NCBI RefSeq assembly: GCF_964213995.1
Contig: NW_027591018.1
Coordinates: forward strand, 1 to 64,000
Direction of reading: 5' to 3'
DNA: 64,000 bases
Source: Mustelus asterias
Taxonomy: Eukaryota
Shown piece after piece: positions 13,282 through 58,114 of this stretch (positions are counted from its first letter, which is position 1; the number at the start of each line of letters is the position of its first letter). The position numbers and the translations under genes are program-made. The notes under the pieces were generated by a model, which did not search any database, had not been told where the DNA came from, and saw only the letters and a program-made list of their open reading frames with translations.

Positions 13282-13704
13282 CCATTATTCTCCTGACAAC
13301 TTGGATCAAATTATCCCTGACACTCCAAAATTCCTGGGAATACAGCCCTCGTTTGTGTCTCCATAGCTGCGTATCTGTCACATTTAAAATACTAACGTTA
13401 CTTTAGTGAAGAGACAACTCTGTCAGAAATATCTCAGTGCTGCGTTCACACAAAATGGCCACTGGGAAGAAACGCCAAATGGCTGCCGAATATTTGTGGA
13501 TATTTTTCACTGATTCCCAGAAAGGGAGAGATGGACAGAAGACACAGACACAGAGAGTGAGAAAAAGAGAGAGACACAGATTGATGGAGGTATAAAAGGT
13601 TTCCCTTTACCCGCACATGATTTAACTTGTTCCCAGTTGGTTTATGGTTTCTCTCCTCAACTTATTGTCCAAAGTGCATCACTTCACATTTCTCAGTGTT
13701 GGAG

Positions 13705-14149
13705 TTAACTGCCTGACCGTTTCATTTCAATCTCCTCTATCGCACAGTAATACAGAGCGGTATCCGCGCTCCCACTGTTTTCAATAATCAACTGGCCCCA
13801 TTTGCTCGCAGTGGAAAGTTCCAATTCGAATCGCTCCTTTCTCTCTTTGCCATCCGAGAATCCGCTTATTATCCACTTCAGACCCTGACCGGGTTTTTGC
13901 CTGTACCAATCCATTCTGTAAAAGCTGGAAATGTCATAACTGCAGTTTATCTGCACCGAATCCCCGCTCTGGACTGTTCTCGCTGTGGGAGTTTGTGAAA
14001 CTTGGTCCGAGCGACACCGATCTGTAAAAACATTCAGACAATGAGGCACTGGAACAAAATGAATATCAGTAAACAGTCTCTATAGGTTACAGAGTAAATT
14101 TCCTGCGCTTACAAATTGGTAGAACCATAATGACAAGGCACAGATACAT
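13705..14149 (-). pseudogene. TRAV: TCR alpha/delta V segment with intact leader and V exon but no RSS
   Basis: Leader exon 14149-14113 (MYLCLVIMVLPI, GT donor); AG acceptor, V exon from 14021 (DQVSQ..C..WYRQKPG..DTALYYCAIE); homology to the paralog at 26393-26802 stops at 13735; the frame reads on to a stop at 13705. Confidence 0.85.
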
Positions 14150-14794
14150 TTGCACCGTGTGAGACAGTAACAATGTCAATAGGAAAACGGAGCACAGCTC
14201 ACAGCAGAAGAGCGCGAAGTGAATCAACAACTTCAGTATTCCCCGAATGTAAGATGCACCAGATAACGTTTCAGACACTCGGGTTCTCTGCAATCTGATG
14301 GGCTGGAATCAGACTATGCTCTTCCGGTGTAAGGATGTGTTTTTTTGATCCGCTGCTGCTTCTCTTTCCGATCATGTGTGAACAAATCAATTTTCTATAA
14401 ACCAGGGCCCTACTTTACTACAGTTACTTTAATTGATAAAAGTGTTCACTGCTTAATTGTTCAACAATGAAGTCGTTGATTTCAATTTGAGGTAATTATT
14501 CATGTGAATTCTACCCAAGTGCAGTTCAAATGATCGTTTCAAATACAAGAAGCTCCTCCCGCTGCTCAGGCCTGGCTCCGTTATCCTCGGAAACTCTGCC
14601 TCGGGATTTCAATTGAAGCACCAACCATTTAGTTGATGGCCTGTACCTGGTTATGTTTTATTCTAGCTCAACATCCTCACCCTGACAAGAGGAATATCCT
14701 GATTTTATTTAATATCCAAACATTTATTTAATATTCTGAATTGAACTTATCTGAAATACACAACATTGAATTGCAAACACGACTGACCAACAAA

Positions 14795-15094: not shown

Positions 15095-17105
15095 AGAACA
15101 TAGAACATAGAACATAGAACATTACAGCGCAGAACAGGCCCTTCGGCCCACGATGTTGCACCGACCAGTTAAAAAAAAACTGTGACCCTCCAACCTAAAC
15201 CAATTTCTTTTCGTCCATGAACCTATCTACGGATCTCTTAAACGCCCCCAAACTAGGCGCATTTACTACTGATGCTGGCAGGGCATTCCAATCCCTCACC
15301 ACCCTCTGGGTAAAGAACCTACCCCTGACATCGGTTCTATAACTACCCCCCCTCAATTTAAAGCCATGCCCCCTCGTGCTGGATTTCTCCATCAGAGGAA
15401 AAAGGCTATCACTATCCACCCTATCTAAACCTCTAATCATCTTATATGTTTCAATAAGATCCCCTCTTAGCCGCCGCCTTTCCAGCGAAAACAATCCCAA
15501 ATCCCTCAGCCTCTCCTCATAGGATCTCCCCTCCATACCAGGCAACATCCTGGTAAACCTCCTCTGCACCCTCTCCAAAGCCTCCACATCCTTCCTGTAA
15601 TGTGGGGACCAGAACTGCACACAGTACTCCAAGTGCGGCCGCACCAGAGTTGTGTACAGTTGCAACATAACGCCACGACTCCTAAATTCAATCCCCCTAC
15701 CAATAAACGCCAAGACACCATATGCCTTCTTAACAACCCTATCTACTTGATTCCCAACCTTCAGGGATCTATGCACACATACACCTAGATCCCTCTGCTC
15801 CTCCACACTATTCAAAGTCCTCCCGTTAGCCCTATACTCAACACATCTGTTATTCCTACCAAAGTGAATTACCTCACACTTCTCCGCATTAAACTCCATC
15901 CGCCACCTCTCGGCCCAACTTTGCAACCTGTCTAAGTCTTCCTGCAAACTACGACACCCTTCCTCACTGTCTACCACACCACCGACTTTGGTGTCATCAG
16001 CAAATTTGCTAATCCACCCAACTATACCCTCATCCAGATCATTAATAAATATTACAAACAGCAGTGGCCCCAAAACAGATCCCTGAGGTACACCACTTGT
16101 AACCGCACTCCATGATGAATATTTACTATCAACCACCACCCTCTGTTTCCTATCCGCTAGCCAATTCCTGATCCAATTTCCTAGATCACCCCCAATCCCA
16201 TACATCTGCATTTTCTGCAGAAGCCTACCATGGTGAACCTTATCAAACGCCTTACTAAAATCCATATATACCACGTCCACTGCCTTGCCCCCATCCACCT
16301 CCTTGGTCACTTTCTCAAAAAACTCAATAAGGTTAGTAAGGCACGACCTACCTGCCACAAAACCATGCTGACTATCACCTATCAATTCATTACTCTCCAA
16401 ATAACTATAAATCCTATCCCTTATAATTTTTTCCAACATCTTGCCGACAACAGAAGTGAGACTCACCGGTCTATAATTCCCGGGGAAGTCTCTGTTCCCC
16501 TTCTTAAACAATGGGACAACATTCGCTAACCTCCAATCTTCTGGTACTATACCAGAGGCCAACGACGACCTGAAGATCAGAGCCAGAGGCTCTGCAATCA
16601 CTTCTCTTGCCTCCCAGAGAATCCTTGGATAAATCCCATCCGGACCAGGGGATTTATCTATTTTCAGACCCTCCAGAATATCCTGCACATCCTCCTTATC
16701 AACTGTAATACTGTCTATTCTACTCCCTTGCAACCCAGTGTCCTCCTCAGCTATATTCATGTCCCCTTGCGTGAACACCGAAGAGAAATATTGGTTCAAT
16801 GCTTCACCAATCTCCTCCGGTTCCACACATAACTTCCCTCTGCCATCTATAACTGGCCCTAAACTTGCCCTAACCAACCTTCTGTTCTTGACATACCTAT
16901 AGAACGCCTTAGGATTCTCTTTAACCCTATCCGCCAAAGTCTTCTCATGTCCCCTTTTAGCCCTTCTAAGCTCGCTCTTCAACTCCCTCTTAGCCAATCT
17001 AAAGCTTTCTAGTGCACTACCCGAGTGCTCACGTCTCATCCGAACATAAGCCTCCTTTTTCTTTTTAACCAACAAAGAAACTTTTTTGGTGCACCACGGT
17101 TCCCT
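15095..17105 (-). mobile_element. Young 5'-truncated CR1 LINE (RT domain open)
   Basis: ORF 15195..~17105 with intact RT motifs; (agaacat)n tail at 15095-15121. Confidence 0.96.
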
Positions 17106-17818
17106 AACCGTGGTGCACCACGGTTTCTCCCCACAAATGCTGTCAGACCGGCTGAGGTTTTCCAGCAGTTTCTGCGTTTGTGTGTGAAAAGAAATCGAAT
17201 CATTGGGTAACCCAGATCCCATGGTGTTTATCTGACCACAGGCAGCTTCTAAACAAAATCAAATATTTTTACATGGAAGATATTTAAGAAAGATCGACCA
17301 ATTACACTTGATCCCTCTTTATTCTGGATGTAAAACATTCTGCCCCCTAAACCTCGTTCATCAACACAAAATCCAAGTAGATCGGCACTGAGTCTCGATT
17401 TCCTCATCAGCCTGAGCGGTTTTTTCTCTTTGTCTATTATGATGAAAGATTTTAAAAGATGGTACTGTGCAGTGCGCGCCATTTCCTCCAGTTCAGTTGC
17501 AGCATCACTTGTGTCTGTCTTTATGCGCACACAATACTATTAAACATGTTTCATACGGTGATTAACTATCCTAGTCTGCATCTGTAAACCCATTCAATTC
17601 TGTTGTACACTGAACGAATTGCGAATATGTGCACGGTGTCAAATTAGGAACATTTAATTCCTCATTATGTCTTAAAAGGCAGCATTTCCGAATTTGCTGA
17701 AAGCATTTGAGGCCGAGGTCACGGCAAATATAATGTGGCTTAACATCGAGTTTCTGATAATGTTCAGGAACAAACTTAAATCCTGCAAACATCGCTTACC
17801 CTCACTGTGAAAGGTTTA

Positions 17819-20577: not shown

Positions 20578-20775
20578 ATAAATATTTATTGAAGATATAT
20601 AGCACTGGAGATACGTTTCAAGATCTACCGGACAGATTTTCTTGCTGTTTTGCGCAAAGGAAAGAAAACTGTTCTTTTTAATATTGCCGGGATGCTTCTC
20701 CCTGACACCGCCGTGTATTTCTGTGCCACGGAGCCCACACTGCTGCAGAGATAGAGCGGATCCCGGACAACAACC
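20578..20775 (+). pseudogene. TRAV: TCR V 3' half fragment with RSS (frameshifted, no leader)
   Basis: KYLLKIYSTGDTFQDLPDRF, then a +1 frameshift, then LAVLRKGKKTVLFNIAGMLLPDTAVYFCATEP; cacactg 20736-20742, 24-nt spacer, acaacaacc 20767-20775. Confidence 0.85.
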
Positions 20776-26353: not shown

Positions 26354-26392
26354 GGTTTTTGTACAGTGACGAGCGTCTTTCCTCTCAGTGTG
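26354..26392 (-). other. 23-RSS
   Basis: cacactg + 23 nt + acaaaaacc on the - strand. Confidence 0.95.
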
Positions 26393-33774: not shown

Positions 33775-34347
33775 TGGGGTTATGCTGCAACTGTACAGGA
33801 CCTTGGTGAGACCACATTTGGAATATTGTGTGCAGTTCTGGTCACCTCACTATAAGAAGGATGTGGAAGCGCTGGAAAGAGTGCAGAGGAGATTTACCAG
33901 GATGCTGCCTGGTTTGGAGGGTAGGTCTTATGAGGAAAGGTTGAGGGAGTTAGGGCTGTTCTCTCTGGAGCGGAGGAGGCTGAGGGGAGACTTAATAAAG
34001 GTTTATAAAATGATGAAGGGGATAGATAGAGTGAACGTTCAAAGACTATTTCCTCGGGTGGATGGAGCTATTACAAGGGGGCATAACTATGGGGTTCATG
34101 GTGGGAGATACAGGAAGGATGTCAGAGGTAGGTTATTTGTGCAGAGAGTGGTTGGGGTGTGGAATGGACTGCCTGCAGTGATAGTGGAGTCAGACACTTT
34201 AGGAACATTTAAGCGGTTATTGGATAGGCACATGGAGCACACCAGGATGATAGGGAGTGGGATAGCTTGATCTTGGTTTCAGATAAAGCTCGGCACAACA
34301 CCGTGGGCCGAAGGGCCTGTTCTGTGCTGTACTGTTCTATGTTCTAT
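33775..34347 (+). mobile_element. CR1 3' fragment, same young family as 10460-13281
   Basis: Near-identical C-terminus ..RHMEHTRMIGSGIA* and tail. Confidence 0.93.
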
Positions 34348-34730
34348 AATGCATCTCAGGTCGATTGAACAATCTTAAATCAATTAGGTTGATTTGCCAT
34401 GCTAAATTAACCCTAGTGTAAGGGGGATTAGCAGGGTAAATATGTGGGGTTGCGGGAAGAGGGCCTGGGTTGGATTGTGGTCGGCGCAGACTCGATGGGC
34501 TGAATGGCCTCCGTCTGCACTGTCAGGATTCTACGATTCCATGATTCTGCAACTGTAAGTAACGGTCATCAATTAATATAACTGTGCAGCTGGACCACGC
34601 CAGTTGCTGTTTTTAAGTGCTGTTTTTGTGTTGCAATGCTCAGAATCTCCGTCACTCGCTCGGTGGAAACGGAATTCGCCGCGCGTGTGCGAGCGCACCC
34701 TGCTGGGCACGAACTGGAACTGCCAGTGTG

Positions 34731-34826
34731 GGGTTGTGTTCTGCATTCGATATGTCTCTGCAGCAGTGTGGGCTCCATGGCACAGACATACACGGCGCTG
34801 TCGGAAACCATTGCGTCCATGATGGT
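34731..34826 (-). pseudogene. TRAV: TCR V 3' stub with RSS, cut by a Penelope insertion
   Basis: TIMDAMVSDSAVYVCAMEP; cacactg 34770-34764, 24-nt spacer, acacaaccc; related to the V at 42470. Confidence 0.85.
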
Positions 34827-35310
34827 CTCTACAGCCAGCCAGGTCTTAAAGGTACAGATAATGTGGGTGGAGGGAACATTAAACACAGGTTCAAGAGATG
34901 TGTATTGTCTCCGGACAGAACAGCTAGTGAGATTCTGCAAGATCAGGAGGCAAGCTGTGGGGGTTACTGATAATGTGACATAAATCCAACATCCCGGTTT
35001 AGGCCGTCCTCGTGTGTGCGGAACGTGGCTATCAGTTTCTGCTCAGCGAATCTGCGCTGTCGTGTGTCGTGAAGGCCGCCTTGGAGAATGCTTACCTGAA
35101 GATCCAAGGCTGAATGCCCTAAGACCTGGCTGGCTGTAGAGATTTGCATTCTAATTAGTATTCTGTAACTTGATGTTGTGTCTCTGTGCACTGTTGGAGA
35201 ACAGATTTTCACTCCATCTGATGAAGGGGCAGCGCTCCGAAAGCTTATGGTATTTGCTACCAAATAAACCTGTTGGACTTTAACCTGGTGTTGTGAGACT
35301 TCTTATTGTG
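34827..35310. mobile_element. Penelope-like element fragment with internal inversion
   Basis: - strand endonuclease-type C-terminus QRRFAEQKLIATFRTHEDGLNRD; inverted repeat ctctacagccagccaggtctta / taagacctggctggctgtagag; + strand pLTR tail. Confidence 0.8.
35214..35250 (+). ncRNA. Minimal hammerhead ribozyme motif (Penelope type)
   Basis: ccat-CTGATGA-a-gggg cagcg ctcc-GAAA-gctt-atgg: conserved core, stems I and II, palindromic loopless stem III. Confidence 0.7.
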
Positions 35311-35633
35311 GTGAGGAATCCAGTTAACAGCCAAATTCCAGCGTGCAGAACCCGCCATCAGAGGGCGCCACATTCTCGCCTGGGCGCCAGAAACTCACGT
35401 GATATTATCACTGAACCCTGTATGGATGGTAGGTTTGTGAGGTCACAATAGACAACCCCCCCCCACCCCCCCACCCACCCACCCACAGACACAGAAGCTC
35501 ACACTGACCCACGCACACCGACACTCTCACAAACACACTCACTGCAATCAGTTGCACAGAGCCCGGGTTCCCTCTCTCCTTCTCAATCTCTGACTCACTC
35601 CGTTCCCATTCAGTGAGATAGATTCACTCAGAC

Positions 35634-36149
35634 ATGTTTCTGATCTTCCTGGCGGCGCTCTTGCACAGTAAGTACTGGGGTAACGTACATCAAGCCAGAT
35701 AAATGCATTAACACACATACATGGTAATATAATTAACCATCACAAATATCGATGTGAGGGGTGAATGGGGGGGGGGGGGGGGTGGGGGCGGGCGCTGCAG
35801 AAACGATCGCAGATACAAACATTAACTCTTGATATTTCATTCCTCTACCTTCACAGGCGGACTGTGCGCGGATCCAGTCGCACAGTCATCGCTGCCAATA
35901 ACCGCATCAGAAGGGGATTCAGTGCAGTTGGGTTGTGAATATACAGACAAGGATATGTACAGCATGCAATGGTATCAGCAGAAACCGACACAACCCGTGA
36001 CATGGATTATTACCAAAGCATTTACAGTGAAGGAAGATGAAGTTTCAGGACGATATCTGGCGGCTTCTGACGCGTCTAAACAGAACGGTTACCTCAATAT
36101 AAGCGCCCTCAGTGTGGAGGACGGGGCGGTCTATTACTGTGCAGTGAGG
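35634..36149 (+). CDS. TRAV: TCR alpha/delta V segment, apparently functional
   Basis: Leader 35634-35667 (MFLIFLAALLH), V exon 35857-36149 (DPVAQ..GCEY..WYQQKP..DGAVYYCAVR). Confidence 0.93.
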
Positions 36150-36188
36150 CACAGCGTTAGATTAAAGCTAAAACCCCGTACAAAAACC
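36150..36188 (+). other. 23-RSS
   Basis: cacagcg + 23 nt + acaaaaacc. Confidence 0.95.
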
Positions 36189-37475
36189 TCAGCGAGTATT
36201 TACAGCTCCATTAAGTTTCCTCCTGCGCGAATGGTTTGACCCGGGTTCACGAAGACAGTCATTTCTATTTAGGGTAGAGCCGAGGGGATGATTGGATATC
36301 ACCTGAAGACTCTGTCAGGAATAAGCCTATTTGCAGATGGTGTTGTCTAATATTCTCTTGATTCTCGACCCAGTGATCTCAGAGTGACCCCCCCCCCATC
36401 CTGGATCTACTGGTTACTGCTTTAACCAGGGTCTGGAGCAGGTCCAGGAGAACATCCTCCCACTCACCCACCCCCTCCACACTTTACAGCCTTCTGGATT
36501 CAACATTCAGTCCAACAGTTTCAGAGAGTGAACTCTCAGCCCGTTCTGCTTCTTTTTCTTTGCTTGTTTCGTTTTTCTTTCTTTCAGTCGGCAGCCCCCC
36601 TGCTCCAGACACAGCTTCTGTTTCTCTGTTCCTTCTCTCGCTCCATCTCCATTCCCTTTGGCTCTGGGGGGGGGGGCTCACTTTTCTCTCATTCAATCTC
36701 TCCTGTCTTCCACCCTCTCACAGACCTTCCTTTAGTCCCTGTCCCACCCGCCCCTTTCTCCAAACCTGTTACATTTCTAACTTTCAAAGACTATTTCCTC
36801 GGGTGGATGGAGCTATTACAAGGGGGCATAACTATGGGGTTCATGGTGGGAGATACAGGAAGGATATCAGAGGTAGGTTATTTGTGCAGAGAGTGGTTGG
36901 GGTGTGGAATGGACTGCCTGCAGTGATAGTGGAGTCAGACACTTTCGGAACATTTAAGCGGTTATTGGATAGGCACATGGAGCACACCAGGATGATAGGG
37001 AGTGGGATAGCTTGATCTTGGTTTCAGATAAAGCTCGGCACAACATCGTGGGCCGAAGGGCCTGTTCTGTGCTGTACTGTTCTATGTTCTATAATGCATC
37101 TCAGGTCGATTGAACAATCTTAAATCAATTAGGTTGATTTGCCATGCTAAATTAACCCTAGTGTAAGGGGGATTAGCAGGGTAAATATGTGGGGTTGCGG
37201 GAAGAGGGCCTGGGTTGGATTGTGGTCGGCGCAGACTCGATGGGCTGAATGGCCTCCGTTTGCACTGTCAGGATTCTACGATTCCATGATTCTGCAACTG
37301 TAAGTAACGGTCATCAATTAATATAACTGTGCAGCTGGACCACGCCAGTTGCTGTTTTTAAGTGCTGTTTTTGTGTTGCAATGCTCAGAATCTCCGTCAC
37401 TCGCTCGGTGGAAACGGAATTCGCCGCGCGTGTGCGAGCGCACCCTGCTGGGCACGAACTGGAACTGCCAGTGTG

Positions 37476-37571
37476 GGGTTGTGTTCTGCATTCGATATGT
37501 CTCTGCAGCAGTGTGGGCTCCATGGCACAGACATACACGGCGCTGTCGGAAACCATTGCGTCCATGATGGT
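37476..37571 (-). pseudogene. TRAV: TCR V 3' stub with RSS (duplicate of 34731-34826)
   Basis: Same sequence at offset 2745. Confidence 0.85.
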
Positions 37572-37958
37572 CTCTACAGCCAGCCAGGTCTTAAAGGTAC
37601 AGATAATGTGGGTGGAGGGAACATTAAACACAGGTTAAAGAGATGTGTATTGTCTCCGGACAGAACAGCTAGTGAGATTCTGCAAGATCAGGAGGCAAGC
37701 TGTGGGGGTTACTGATAATGTGACATAAATCCAACATCCCGGTTTAGGCCGTCCTCGTGTGTGCGGAACTTGGCTATCAGTTTCTGCTCAGCGAATCTGC
37801 GCTGTCCTGTGTCGTGAAGGCCGCCTTGGAGAATGCTTACCTGAAGATCCAAGGCTGAATGCCCTAAGACCTGGCTGGCTGTAGAGATTTGCATTCTAAT
37901 TAGTATTCTGTAACTTGATGTTGTGTCTCTGTGCACTGTTGGAGAACAGATTTTCACT

Positions 37959-37995
37959 CCATCTGATGAAGGGGCAGCGCTCCGAAAGCTTATGG
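37959..37995 (+). ncRNA. Minimal hammerhead ribozyme motif (second copy), within Penelope fragment 37572-38055
   Basis: Identical to 35214-35250. Confidence 0.7.
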
Positions 37996-38374
37996 TATTT
38001 GCTACCAAATAAACCTGTTGGACTTTAACCTGGTGTTGTGAGACTTCTTATTGTGGTGAGGAATCCAGTTAACAGCCAAATTCCAGCGTGCAGAACCCGC
38101 CATCAGAGGGCGCCACATTCTCGCCTGGGCGCCAGAAACTCACGTGATATTATCACTGAACCCTGTATGGATGGTAGGTTTGTGAGGTCACAATAGACAA
38201 CCCCCCCCCACCCACCCACCCACCCACAGACACAGAAGCTCACACTGACCCACGCACACCGACACTCTCACAAACACACTCACTGCAATCAGTTGCACAG
38301 AGCCCGGGTTCCCTCTCTCCTTCTCAATCTCTGACTCACTCCGTTCCCATTCAGTGAGATAGATTCACTCAGAC

Positions 38375-38898
38375 ATGTTTCTGATCTTCCTGGCGGCGCT
38401 CTTGCACAGTAAGTACTGGGGTAACGTACATCAAGCCAGATAAATGCATTAACACACATACATGGTAATATAATTAACCATCACAAATATCGATGTGAGG
38501 GGTGAATGGGGCGGGGGGGGGGGGGGGGAGGTGGGGGCGGGCGCTGCAGAAACGATCGCAGATACAAACATTAACTCTTGATATTTCATTCCTCTACCTT
38601 CACAGGCGGACTGTGCGCGGATCCAGTCGCACAGTCATCGCTGCCAATAACCGCATCAGAAGGGGATTCAGTGCAGTTGGGTTGTGAATATACAGACAAG
38701 GATATATACAGCATGCAATGGTATCAGCAGAAACCGACACAACCCGTGACATGGATTATTACCAAAGCATTTACAGTGAAGGAAGATGAAGTTTCAGGAC
38801 GATATCTGGCGGCTTCTGACGCGTCCAAACAGAACGGTTACCTCAACATAAGCGCCCTCAGTGTGGAGGACGGGGCGGTCTATTACTGTGCAGTGAGG
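38375..38898 (+). CDS. TRAV: TCR alpha/delta V segment, apparently functional (duplicate of 35634)
   Basis: Leader 38375-38408, V exon 38606-38898; one amino-acid change (M->I in CDR1). Confidence 0.92.
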
Positions 38899-38937
38899 CA
38901 CAGCGTTAGATTAAAGCTAAAACCCCGTACAAAAACC
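38899..38937 (+). other. 23-RSS
   Basis: cacagcg + 23 nt + acaaaaacc. Confidence 0.95.
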
Positions 38938-39260
38938 TCAGCGAGTATTTACAGCTCCATTAAGTTTCCTCCTGCGCGAATGGTTTGACCCGGGTTCACG
39001 AAGACAGTCATTTCTATTTAGGGTGGAGCCGACGGGATGATTGGATATCACCTGAAGACTCTGTCAGGAATAAGCCTATTTGCAGATGGTGTTGTCTAAT
39101 ATTCTCTTAATTCTCGATCCAGTGATCTCAGCTCTTCCTCCCATTGATTCTGTAGATGTGACATCAGACTCGCCTCATCCACTGCTCTCAGCTTTATCTT
39201 GTTCGATATTCTGCAACTTTCGGAGACACAAGTCCCTGGAATCCAGGAGCAGCAGCAGCG

Positions 39261-47855: not shown

Positions 47856-50124
47856 TTTCACCCCCAGCGTTCCAGTCTGAGCTCCAGAAACGGAAACAAT
47901 GATCTCTCTCTGTACCGGACCTGGAATGTGAGAAGTTGAAAGAGTCAACAAGGTGTGGTGCGATTGGCTGGGGTTTATTTCCCCACCCATTTTTATATCT
48001 GCAAATAGTCACTCTCTGCAGAAGGCAACTGTGATGTTCGGTAAGTGATCAGAGAGCGCCCTCCCGTGGACATTACAACCGCATTGGGAACAGACGCAGA
48101 AACAAGAGCCCAGATATACACACGCCGAGAAATATAAAGACCCAGAAATACCCAGTGCAGCTACAACACGGACACGAGGGAATAGCCGCTCCACATCCAC
48201 ACTGTTAATACCCCTTATGGTTTCAAAGGTTTCAATGAAGTTATCTCTGAGTCTTCGAAACTCAAGTGGATACAAACCCAACATCAATATTCTTACCGCG
48301 GATACAGATAACCCGCACGTACCTGGATACTATTACAGCAAACCTTCTCTGAACGTTTTTTAACGCATTGCCATCTTTCTTTAGATAAGGAGATACGTAT
48401 TGTCCGCAATACTCCAGGTGTGGTCTCACCAATGCCCCGTACAACGGAAACATACCCTTCCTATTTTATAATAGATTCCCTCGCAGTAAATGATCATATT
48501 TTATGACGTTTTTAATTAATTACGATACCTGTACCTTAGCCCCTTTCGATTCGTGCCCTAGGACAGCCCAATCTCTCTGTACCTCAGAATTTTGTAATCT
48601 TTCACCGTTTAAATATTAAGTGTATTTTATATTCATCCTGCCAATAGGGGCATTTTCACATTTGACCACATTATACTCAATTTGGCGGAGCTTTGCCAAT
48701 TCACTTAACCTATTTATGTTTCTTTATCGTATCTTCACACGCACTTCATCATTTATCGTCCTACCTATCTTTGTGTTGTCTGCAAATTTAGCATCCATAT
48801 CTGCTCTGTAAATATTACAGTGTATTCTAACAATTAATGCAGTTCTCCTTGATTACTGCTCTGTGACATATCACTGTGTATTCCAACAAGCAATGCAGTT
48901 CTCTTAGATTTCTGCTCTGTAACATATCATTGTGTATTCCAACAATTAAAGCAGAGTTCTCCTGCATTACTGCTCTCTATCCTTCAACCGGGTAATTGAA
49001 TAATTCATCCTGTTCTCTTGGATTATGGCTCCCCAACATATCAATGTGTTATGGAACCTGCTCCTGAAACAGTGAACACAAAAACACGGTGAGGGATCGC
49101 CCTCTGGTGGTGATGTGAGGTAAATGGGAGATCAGTGAATTCTCAGATTACTGAAGGATCTTGTTGCAGGATTTTGCTGCTGTATTTTTTCTTGTTCTCA
49201 TGATTCTTGTTATAATATACTTAAATTCAGGTGGACCCATGCACGGAACTAATACGAACTTCAGTCTGAATCCTCATCAATTAATTGCTTTACCTGTTTT
49301 GAGTGTTCCAGGCCTTTCTGTTAAACTATACTCGTGTTACAACATTTGAAACCACAGCAATACTGCTAAGATTCGAACTCTCAATAAAGTTCTCTCCACA
49401 CATCGAAAGGATGTAAATTTGACTCCAACCTCACATTTATCTGACAGATTGTCGGATTTCAGTGCACCTGCTTCAAGTTTAAACTTTCCTCAGAGTTGTC
49501 ATGATGATATTTTGGCTAACACATCAGCTGTCCCCTCATGGGGCTTGGGGAATTTATTGAAATAGGAGACTGGGAGAAATTGCATGTTCTAAATTCTGCA
49601 CGTTGCTGGAAAACGGTTGAGGGAGAGAGGGGCTTTGAGACACAGAGAGAGGAGACAGACATTAGCCGCCAAAATATTGAGAGTGCAGGATGGACACCGA
49701 GGTGAACAGAGAACCAGAGGCGCAGAGAAAGACAGGCAGGGGCAGGTAAAGTTATTGGGCTACAACCAATGTTGTTCGGTGGCCAATTCTTGACAACACT
49801 GAGCAACAAGCCAATCCTGTCATTGGGTAACGCCTCTTAGTCTCCCAATAAATGAGGACTGCCCATGATATAAAATTACTTCTTCACATCAGAGTACAAG
49901 AGTTGACATAATTTTACAATTCTGCTGATTTTGTGGAATTCTTAAGCTGGAAGCATGTTCTCCCAATGTTCTTCACTGCTTTGTCTAGGAAACAATGACT
50001 GAACACAGGGGGTGAATGTGAGAAGCTGAAGTTTCCACTTGAAGACATTCCCAGTGTCTCTGAGCAGCTGAACTGGGGAAGCCTTTGGGCAGAGACTGTG
50101 CTGCTGCTATTGCCCTTCCTGGCC

Positions 50125-50450
50125 ACCAGGCGTCGCTGTAACGCTCCCCGGGGGGCTGCTCCTCCCAGTGTCACCTCTTGCCCACTCCGGCCCATGCTCG
50201 TTGGCGGGACAACAGGGGGGGGTCAGCCGAGGGGGCGGGGCGGCCTGTGCGCATGTGCGGGACGGGAATGCTCCCAGAGGTCAGCGCGCGGGGACGCCGC
50301 CGCATTGATGCCGTCTCCCCTGGCAACGCAAGATGGTGGCCGCCGTCTCCCTTGGCAACGGAATATGGCCGCTGGTCGTCTCCCTTGGCAACGGAAAATG
50401 GCCGCCGGCTGGGGGTGTCATTGCGGCGCGTGCGCAGTGAGGTCTGCCTG
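50125..50450. promoter_or_regulatory. CpG-island promoter-like element with 3 tandem RFX(X-box)+YY1-like units
   Basis: GC box gggggcggggc, NRF1-like tgcgcatgtgc, and 3 copies of gtctccc(c/t)tggcaac..a(a/t)atgg. Confidence 0.6.
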
Positions 50451-51067
50451 CAGCCATTGTCCAGATTGCCCCCAGTGGATGGGGTTGGGATTGTGCAGCA
50501 GATGGAGCAACAATCCCAGTTTCAATAGGGGGACAGAAGCTGCAATGCTGCCCCCTGTTGGTCACTTCTCCCAGTCTCAGCATTGCAGAGTGTTTAAACA
50601 AGAGTGCATTGTCACAGCAGCACCTTGACCTTCAGTTTCAGTTTATTTATTAGTGTCAGAAGTAGGCTTACATTAACACTACAATGAAGTTACTGTGAGA
50701 ATCCCCTAGTCGCCCACACTCCGGCGCCTGTTCGGGTTACACTGAGGGAGAATTTAGCACGGCCAATGCACCCTAACCGGCACATCTTTCAGACTGTGGG
50801 AGGAAACCGGAGCACCCGGAGGAAACCCACGCAGACACGGGGAGGGGACAGCCCGGGGGAAAGCTCCATTCCAACTGTCCCTGGAGTGTCAGATTAACCT
50901 GGGTCACTCACGCCCCCCCCCCCGGCTAAGACTCACCTCCCTCAGACAGTGAGACCCTCCTGTATCACTCACCTTACTGTAGTCAGATACCCTCAGACTC
51001 AGCACTGGGCCCTGGGCGTGTTCTTTAAATGCTGCGACCTATCGTGGAGGAAAGAATTGGGAGGATT

Positions 51068-54660: not shown

Positions 54661-56486
54661 CAAGATAGGAAACAGAGGGGAGGTTATTTACAAACCCAAC
54701 ATCAATATTCTTACCGCGGATACAGATAACCCGCACGTACCTGGATACTATTACAGCAAACCTTCTCTGAACGTTTTTTAACGCATTACCATCTTTCTTT
54801 AGATAAGGAGATACGTATTGTCCGCAATACTCCAGGTGAGGTCTCACCAATGCCCCGTACAACGGAAACATACCCTTCCTATTTTATAATAGATCCCCTC
54901 GTAGTGAATGATCATATTTTATGACGTTTTTAATTAATTACTATACCTGTACCTTAGCCCCTTTCGATTCGTGCCCTAGGACAGCCCAATCCCTCTGTAC
55001 CTCAGAATTTTGTAATCTTTCACCGTTTAAATATTAAGTGTATTTTATATTCATCCTGCCAATATGGACATTTCCACATTTGACCACATTCTACTCAATT
55101 TGGCGGAGCTTTGCCAATTCACTTAACCTACTTATGTTTCTTTATCGTATCCTTACACGCACTTTATCATTTATCTTCCTACCTATCTTTGTGTTGTCTG
55201 CAAATTTAGCATCCATATCTGCTCTGTAAATATTACAGTGTATTCTAACAATTAATCCAGTTCTCCTTGATTACTGCTCTGCTACATATCATCGTGTATT
55301 CCAACAATTAAAGCAGAGTTCTCCTGCATTACTGCTCTCTATCCTTTAACCGTGTAATTGAATAATTCATCCTGTTCTCTTGGATTATGGCTCCCCAACA
55401 TATCCATGTGTTATGGAACCCGCTCCTGAAACAGTGAACACAAAAACACGGTGAGGGATCGCCCTCTGGTGGTGATGTGAGGTAAATGGGAGATCAGTGA
55501 ATTCTCAGATTACTGGAAGATCTTGTTGCAGGATTTTGCTGCTGTATTTTTTCTTGTTCTCATGATTCTTATTATAATATACTTAAATTCAGGTGGACTC
55601 ATGCACGGAACTAATACGAACTTCAGTCTGAATCCTCATCAATTAATTGCTTTATCTGTTTTGAATGTTCCAGGCCTTTCTGTTAAACTATATTCGTGTT
55701 ACAAAATTTGAAACCACAGCAATACTGCTAAGATTCGATCTCTTATTAAAGTTCTCTCCACACATCGAAAGGATGTAAATTTGACTCCAACCTCACATTT
55801 ATCTGACAGATTGTCGGATTTCAGTGCACCTGCTTCAATTTTAAACTTTCCTCAGAGTTGTCATGATGATATTTTGGCTAACATATCAGCTGTCCCCTAA
55901 TGGGGCTTGGGGAATTTATTGAAATAGGAGACTGGGAGAAATTGCATGTTCTAAATTCTGCACGTTGCTGGAAAACGGTTGAGGGAGAGAGGGGCTTTGA
56001 GACACAGAGAGAGGAGACAGACATTAGCCACCAAAATATTGAGAGTGCAGGATGGACACCGAGGTGAACAGAGACCCAGAGGCGCAGAGAAAGACAGGCA
56101 GGGGCAGGTAAAGTTATTGGGCTACAACCAATGTTGTTCGGTGGCCAATTCTTGACAACACTGAGCAACAAGCCAATCCTGTCATTGGGTAACGCCTCTT
56201 AGTCCCCCAATAAATGAGGACTGCCCATGATATAAAATTACTTCTTCACATCAGAGTACAAGAGTTGACATAATTTTACAATTCTGCTGATTTTGTGGAA
56301 TTCTTAAGCTGGAAGCATGTTCTCCCAATGTTCTTCACTACTTTGTCTAGGAAACAATGACTGAACACAGGGGGTGAATGTGAGAAGCTGAAGTTTCCAC
56401 TTGAAGACATTCCCAGTGTCTCTGAGCAGCTGAACTGGGGAAGCCTTTGGGCAGAGACTGTGCTGCTGCTATTGCCCTTCCTGGCC

Positions 56487-56815
56487 ACCAGGCGTCGCTG
56501 TAACGCTCCCCGGGGGGCTGCTCCTCCCAGTGTCACCTCTTGCCCACTCCGGCCCATGCTCGTTGGCGGGACAACAGGGGGGGGGGTCAGTCGAGGGGGC
56601 GGGGCGGCCTGTGCGCATGTGCGGGACGGGAATGCTCCCAGAGGTCAGCGCGCGGGGACGCCGCCGCATTGATGCCGTCTCCCCTGGCAACGCAAGATGG
56701 TGGCCGCCGTCTCCCTTGGCAACGGAATAGGGCCGCTGGCCGTCTCCCTTGGCAACGCAAGATGGCCGCCGGCGGTGGGTGTCATTGCGGCGCACGCGCA
56801 GTGAGGTCTGTCTGC
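56487..56815. promoter_or_regulatory. Duplicate CpG-island promoter-like element
   Basis: Copy of 50125-50450. Confidence 0.6.
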
Positions 56816-58114
56816 AGCCATTGTCCAGATTGCCCCCAGTGGATGGGGTTGGGATTGTGCAGCAGATGGAGCAACAATCCCAGTTTCAATAGGGGGACAG
56901 AAGCTGCAATGCTGCCCCCTGGTGGTCACTTCTCCCAGTCTCAGCATTGCAGAGTGTTTAAACAAGAGTGCATTGTCACAGCAGCACCTTGACCTTCAGT
57001 TTCAGTTTATTTATTAGTGTCAGAAGTAGGCTTACATTAACACTACAATGAAGTTACTGTGAGAATCCCCTAGTCGCCCACACTCCGGCGCCTGTTCGGG
57101 TTACACTGAGGGGGAATTTAGCACGGCCAATGCACCCTAACCAGCACATCTTTCAGACTGTGGGAGGAAACCGGAGCACCCGGAGGAAACCCACACAAAA
57201 TGTAAAGATTTCAGAACAAAACCAGACAGAGAGTGATGAGGCCTCACACCTTCAATGTAGTGATTCCCCCAATCTTTCCTTTTGTATATTGTTTCCTTCG
57301 TCTGTCTGAAGTATTGGAGACGTCGACATCACTGAAACAATACAATCTCTCGGGACAATCACTGTAAACAGCTTCTGGAAACAAATTAACACTTTAATCA
57401 CCCAAAAAGCTGAATGTCCATTCAAACACCTCCCTCCCCATATCCTTGTAAATGCAAAGATAACTCCCATTTCCCCAAAGCAGGAAGATGTGAAATGGAA
57501 ACATCTTCAGCTTTTTACACACTGCACTTTTCCACGGACCAAAATGTTTCAAAACATTTGCTGAAGTTTTGTTTTAAACTCTTTATCAATGTCCTTCCAG
57601 GTTTAGTGTGAAGGTTTGTGTTCCACACTGAGCCCCTCTCAGTCTCCACACGGAGCTTGTGTGTGTGCTGATGCTCCTGTCATTTTGGATGGATACTGTG
57701 TGAAGCTGCATTCTCTCCCAGTGAGTTTCTGATGTACTTCACTCTCTCTGCGGCTGGAGCAATGTCCAGCAGGCAGCAGAGGATGGCAGTGTATCACTGT
57801 CAGCACAATATAGACAAACAGCCTTTAGCAAGAGAGGCTTTGACCCGTTTTCAAACCAAATCCCCAATTTGATGTTTCCAGCTGCGCTGTTTACAATGCT
57901 GCTGAATATTGTGTGTCTTTGGTAAACTGGGATGTGTAGCATTCAGTCACATTAAGTGGTCAATAAATATGTCCACACTGTGTATATCTTTCTGTGTGTG
58001 TGTGTCAGCGTGCATGTGTGTCAATGTATTTAAATCTCAAAGGAAAATAGGAGCAGGTGTAGGCCATTTGGCCCATCGATCCTGCACCAGCATTCAAACA
58101 GATCATGGTGCACG

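Follow-up and report, generated by a model that had tools for sequence, protein, structure and literature searches.

The window analysed here is a stretch of 64,000 nucleotides of Mustelus asterias DNA (contig NW_027591018.1, positions 1 to 64,000). A TCR-type V segment lies on its minus strand with the end of the V exon at 13735, where repeat DNA takes the place of the expected RSS. The features of this locus are as follows.

13735-14149, minus strand: whole V segment with ATG at 14149; exon, splice sites and frame intact, RSS missing.
14113..14149, minus strand: leader exon of 37 nt, starting from the same ATG.
14022..14112, minus strand: leader intron, 91 nt, GT-AG.
13735..14021, minus strand: V exon, open frame, Pfam V-set match with E 2.9e-14.
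13735..13738, minus strand: 4-nt microhomology AGAG, common to the V end and the donor, with no untemplated bases.
13705..13734, minus strand: read-through tail EIEMKRSGS* in donor DNA, stop at 13705-13707.
3789..13738, unstranded: almost whole unit of a tandem repeat of about 10.04 kb, a LINE/SINE mosaic about 96-99.7% identical to the units on contig C596.
10539..13310, minus strand: open EN+RT frame of 923 aa from a CR1-like LINE in the donor unit, away from the junction.
15095..17123, unstranded: private CR1-like insertion of about 2 kb, 1.36 kb from the junction, tagging the RSS-less V block as a separate copy.
26354..26392, minus strand: intact 23-RSS of the in-window paralog (V end 26395, followed by CC), the reference for the lost RSS.

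The segment has the split leader and the V-set domain of a TCR-type V, and its paralogs carry the 23-RSS. PDB matches at residues 3-93 include TCR alpha chains. The leader, the splice sites and the frame are intact, as the first-pass annotation had described them, and the spliced frame ends in ...YYCAIE, followed by the nine codons of the tail before the stop. After ...GATAGAG the V departs abruptly from the in-window paralog, 2 nt short of that paralog's CACACTG-23-ACAAAAACC, and comparison with paralogs that keep the 23-RSS bears out the earlier claim of an intact V losing its RSS 2 nt from the coding end. The alignment to this paralog (V exons at offset 12660) had been called gapless, which is correct for the V exon but not for the intron and the upstream region, where small gaps occur. 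An RSS scan of positions 1-13734 detected no V-type RSS, so the RSS-less V is the outermost V on that side of the window, again as first described. No J segment was found 3' of the V, the adjoining donor DNA contains no J motif, and a search of the 430 nt past the V for a splice donor of the type GT(A/G)AG found none; a germline V-J join was rejected for lack of J motif and splice donor.

The DNA past the break is not unique. It belongs to the repeat of about 10.04 kb that forms tandem arrays on C596, and a genome search returned 872 candidates, of which the 40 scored showed 98-100% identity. A 28-nt probe over the intact donor site gave 394 genome matches at no more than one mismatch, 29 of them exact. 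The intact donor reads ...GCGGGTGCAGAG/GAGATTG (slash, break), and past the break the intact units go on with C and then CACCCGC, presenting a bare CAC convergent to the RSS of the V. The decayed CR1-like stretch noted earlier past the V is thus there, but as part of a high-copy tandem unit of about 10 kb, and the proposed search for an intact paralog of the flank yields an intact donor in many copies genome-wide. Among 19 contigs with the exact donor variant, 7 also hold V ends, indicating that donor and V blocks are neighbours, and this co-occurrence would fit a rearrangement in cis. tRNA genes were absent from the donor unit in 7 loci, and Rfam gave no match in the window or in 4 donor loci. 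The repeat is young; its related copies run into the hundreds and are interspersed among V blocks (G000:C596:~79000-143999 and many other contigs), and a TATA-like site lies inside the unit near 13593.

A genome search with the V side retrieved nine copies at 99-100% identity, the RSS-less V included. All 8 other copies keep the RSS and are 99.5-100% identical, with 0-4 bases different over 766 nt; positions 13735-14500 are identical to the RSS-bearing twin at G000:C596:29772-30537. The break lies 2-6 nt from the CACACTG of all 8 twins, the range following from the sharing of AGAG by V end and donor, which allows the crossover anywhere within it. AGAG is present at 13 of 14 donor loci, L014 having AAAG, and apart from it the flanks of V and donor are unrelated and without long homology. 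The donor CAC begins 1 nt past the microhomology and is oriented convergent to the RSS of the V. From the V end ...AGAG-CC/CAC and the donor GTG/C-AGAG, cuts at both sites with losses of 2 nt and 1 nt, respectively, would give the exact junction. The CAC at the donor breakpoint for which the first-pass annotation advised looking is therefore found, whereas the reciprocal signal joint, sought there as well, is not: the genome search gave 0 matches, and a deletion would lose the signal joint on an excision circle. No P or N nucleotides were added at the junction, which weighs little because this is compatible with TdT-less joining. The assembly contains the V-to-repeat junction a single time. 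A search for other foreign partners at the donor position, with a pattern that would catch about 42% of random ones, found none. A search for protein homologues likewise gave no candidate, a result that speaks neither for nor against any reading.

Two further candidates were rejected. Insertion or retrotransposition of a donor piece is contradicted by the position of the break, which is internal to the unit, and by the homology, which continues for about 10 kb past the CR1 tail. Both an element terminus at the break and a target-site duplication there had been named beforehand as evidence against RAG; neither is present, the microhomology is limited to 4 nt, and no RSS resumes in 1-13734. A displaced, hidden RSS was suggested by a heptamer/nonamer-like site about 32 nt into the donor, which is native CR1-like sequence present in the donor copies.

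For comparison, V ends and breakpoints were surveyed in the assembly. Five V-end motif searches gave 41, 92, 80, 105 (100 listed) and 76 matches, 394 in total with 389 listed; eight matches of one search, on large contigs, resemble non-V repeats. With 120 additional stretches of 10 kb, selected for 202 of the 331 listed V ends that the other sequences did not contain, the sample comprised 197 sequences (1.83 Mb with overlaps), in which V ends were located by exact motifs, a sample rather than the whole genome. It holds 442 V ends, 367 of them distinct. Large breaks in the alignments are common: there were 28 breakpoint clusters among the nine copies of the window's V block (66 RSS calls), and up to 700 nt from the 306 intact V-RSS references there were 94 clusters of discontinuities, a figure that includes some double counts. 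Six abrupt junctions fall between -30 and +39 of the heptamer, each confirmed against intact paralogs.

-30: L199, microhomology CTGA; donor only 73% identical.
-15: L115, microhomology ATATTT; internal donor.
-2: the window's V, microhomology AGAG.
+22: L099, retroelement tail.
+26: L120, microhomology AGCAG; another locus.
+33: L171, donor not found.

The other three junctions with an internal donor (L199, L115 and L120) all show 4-6-nt microhomology; the comparator set is small (six), and L099 and L120 may have arisen by retroelement insertion instead of deletion. The junctions of the -30 to +39 scan do not pile up at the heptamer, with one of six at the coding end, and the window's V is the only coding-end fusion to foreign DNA among the 442 V ends and the V-end motif matches listed. 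Between -5 and +5 there are 13 small indels or clustered substitutions, where the rates in spacer and flank predict 11.7 (P = 0.39; calls automated and partly redundant). The count of V truncations near heptamers, proposed earlier as a test that could refute a RAG origin, thus reveals no enrichment in this sample and goes against that origin there.

The donor CAC was evaluated as an RSS with a scoring matrix built from 30 distinct local 23-RSSs. It scores -10.9, as compared with 12.9-28.4 for real RSSs, lacks a nonamer and ranks 78 of 241 among the CAC sites on that strand of the unit. Chance alone puts a CAC 0-1 nt away at 4.8% and 0-5 nt away at 12.7% of the unit's positions. If six junctions are spread uniformly, the probability that at least one falls in the 11 nt around the cut site is 0.64, and for a 7-nt window it is 0.47; nearness to the heptamer, taken alone, is within chance. 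The probability that one of the five non-SINE junctions combines the 7-nt coding-end window with such a CAC is 2-6%.

Based on these observations, we consider it most probable (about 0.63) that the fusion of the V to the interior of the tandem repeat, with its 4-nt microhomology, arose by an inherited, RAG-independent, microhomology-mediated rearrangement. The junction has the short shared homology AGAG and no long homology, and it resembles the other microhomology junctions of the V field, the donor CAC being the sole feature in favour of RAG. Microhomology-mediated end joining or template switching may have joined the V to the repeat interior, through a deletion or some other rearrangement in cis that involved V blocks and adjacent repeat arrays. 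The break would have fallen just before the RSS by happenstance, and the join would be constitutional. The predicted outcome is a V unable to rearrange, a new pseudogene, together with a new boundary between V block and array. The joint chance of 2-6% for coding-end position plus donor CAC counts against this RAG-independent reading. A likelihood ratio of about 6 for RAG, a rough figure allowing for lucky 4-nt homology near both ends, was weighed with the four or five RAG-unrelated junctions observed and with the assumption that germline off-target events seldom survive, leading to the above probability, which, like the lower weights of the other two readings, is a judgement rather than a computed posterior.

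Another origin to be weighed is a germline RAG off-target coding joint, which we hold to be less likely. RAG would have cut at the 23-RSS of the V and at the convergent bare CAC, the intervening DNA would have been deleted, and the V, shortened by 2 nt, and the donor, shortened by 1 nt, would have been joined at their coding ends via AGAG without TdT. The geometry fits exactly, and the low joint chance of position and CAC speaks in the same direction. According to PMC4995090, bare convergent CACs are sites of RAG off-target deletion in mouse T cells; many cryptic RSSs without a nonamer are described in PMC12711392; and in sharks, joins made in germ cells are trimmed by a few nt with little sign of TdT activity (PMC2193156). 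Within this assembly, L089:3207-3280 (C69:30425206) has a V, four extra bases and then a 12-spacer RSS-like signal, resembling a germline V-D join. Against RAG, the window's V is the sole coding-end-type foreign fusion found, border lesions are not enriched, the signal joint and P nucleotides are missing, and the donor site is poor as an RSS. RAG also needs 4-nt homology near both cut ends by luck (estimated at about 10%), while microhomology is the rule among the RAG-unrelated comparator junctions. The mouse off-target joins described in PMC4995090 begin at D-segment RSSs in the recombination centre and not at a lone V. The first-pass proposal of a RAG cut joined to a non-J site retains in its favour an intact donor with a convergent CAC, the absence of an element terminus and the apparent inheritance of the join, but lacks heptamer enrichment, a nonamer, a good donor rank and a signal joint, and becomes a minority reading. 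That RAG in shark germ cells makes heritable off-target deletions from the RSSs of lone TCR V segments to bare CACs in neighbouring repeats, and so helps to reshape the V field, is likewise the less likely view; the junction would then be the fossil of such a coding joint.

As to the origin of the join in the animal, the private CR1-like insertion distinguishes the RSS-less V block from its relatives: it is missing from all 8 twin blocks, its flank junction occurs once in the assembly, and the block that it tags has no RSS-bearing version there. A tagged copy seen only in RSS-less form makes one lymphocyte or one chimeric read hard to invoke, and the lack of an intact-RSS twin of this copy suggests that the join was probably inherited rather than somatic, as judged from the assembled sequence. 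A somatic lymphocyte event or chimeric read caught in the assembly is very improbable: the junction is indeed single-copy, and no more than 13.7 kb, roughly what one long read spans, separate it from the contig start on its left, but an unrearranged version of the tagged copy should dominate the reads and have been assembled, and the left arm is free of homopolymer indels relative to the C596 units. The somatic T-cell event offered earlier as an alternative is improbable on the same evidence. Public short-read contigs (four runs, at most three samples, one study) gave no bridging piece among 26 of 27 pieces, and no RNA data set appeared among those listed. The donor contigs continue into their own flank, the V contigs into the RSS. 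The outcome carries no weight because such contigs drop rare links between high-copy repeats.

3'-Truncated V pseudogenes occur at duplication or rearrangement breakpoints in antigen-receptor loci, and the window's V fits this ordinary class. Like the local examples L115, L199 and L120, it has an abrupt foreign junction with 4-6-nt microhomology in a duplicated V field; unlike them, it is broken 2-6 nt from the heptamer and is otherwise intact. Germline-joined Ig genes of cartilaginous fish are represented by the NS4 light chains of nurse shark (PMC2193156), with which the window's V shares a break at the V coding end, the loss of a few nucleotides, the lack of N additions and probable inheritance. 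NS4 has a bona fide J partner with its own RSS and an in-frame VJ exon, whereas here the partner is a repeat with a bare CAC and the frame stops after 9 codons. A complementary D/J partner with a 12-RSS is lacking, its place being taken by the interior of the 10-kb repeat, and for this reason the window's V is not a germline-joined gene. In the RAG off-target joins of mouse Tcra-Tcrd, an RSS coding end is likewise joined in deletion geometry beside a convergent CAC (PMC4995090). Those joins are somatic, contribute about 1% of junctions and originate at D-segment RSSs of a recombination centre; in contrast, the case in the window is single, apparently inherited and of a lone V, with no statistical excess. 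The window's V resembles a RAG off-target coding joint in geometry but shows no enrichment to match.

The elasmobranch antigen-receptor complex contains scattered TCR alpha/delta-type V exons in a region that expands and contracts rapidly (PMC12227049). The V segments here are similar, being dispersed 23-RSS segments in both orientations and putatively of the alpha/delta class; RSS-less V fusions and the 10-kb tandem unit are not among the features described in the consulted part of that account. On the RAG-independent reading, the window's V is another dead segment in a rapidly shuffling locus and of little importance in itself; it can be used as a worked control, indicating that a breakpoint in this genome should not be taken for a RAG scar on the strength of its nearness to an RSS. 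Were RAG the true origin, its germline activity in sharks would go past V-D-J joining and include the deletion of genomic DNA at off-target sites. Open-access papers and preprints yielded no account of such heritable deletions by RAG in sharks, and the census approach makes the question testable in whole shark assemblies.

The survey also brought up other altered V ends. Odd heptamers suggested germline open-and-shut RAG scars at V borders, an idea rejected on the failed enrichment (13 against 11.7). Small multi-base lesions located exactly at coding/heptamer borders are seen in L094 (C71:19387057), L093/L170, L090/L098 and L091/L097, including a CAC replaced by TGG, a 9-nt coding-end loss and two different lesions in one pseudogene lineage; they could pass for open-and-shut joints, but their number shows no enrichment relative to background. 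Another RSS-less V family, of 10 copies (L079:~4100-4170 and L080-L088), was rejected as a fusion and is a relic: it retains the last 60 nt or so of the V and the nonamer, with a deletion of about 16 nt across the coding/heptamer border. In L115 (C232, ~116.3 kb) the V is joined 15 nt before the heptamer by a 6-nt microhomology, and its partner segment is duplicated in L129 and L135, making it a sister case away from the RSS.

TCR-type V segments with a 23-RSS number several hundred; they lie in both orientations, distributed over one contig of 20 Mb and dozens of small ones (G000:C71, C87-C2942), and these dispersed segments sit in blocks duplicated at about 99% identity. Within the window there are two recent tandem duplications, 34034-36382 / 36779-39131 (98.8% identity), which copies two V segments, and 48271-50833 / 54689-57197 (95.1% identity). 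The V family at 20736, 34770, 37515 and 42968 has an RSS spacer of 24 nt throughout.
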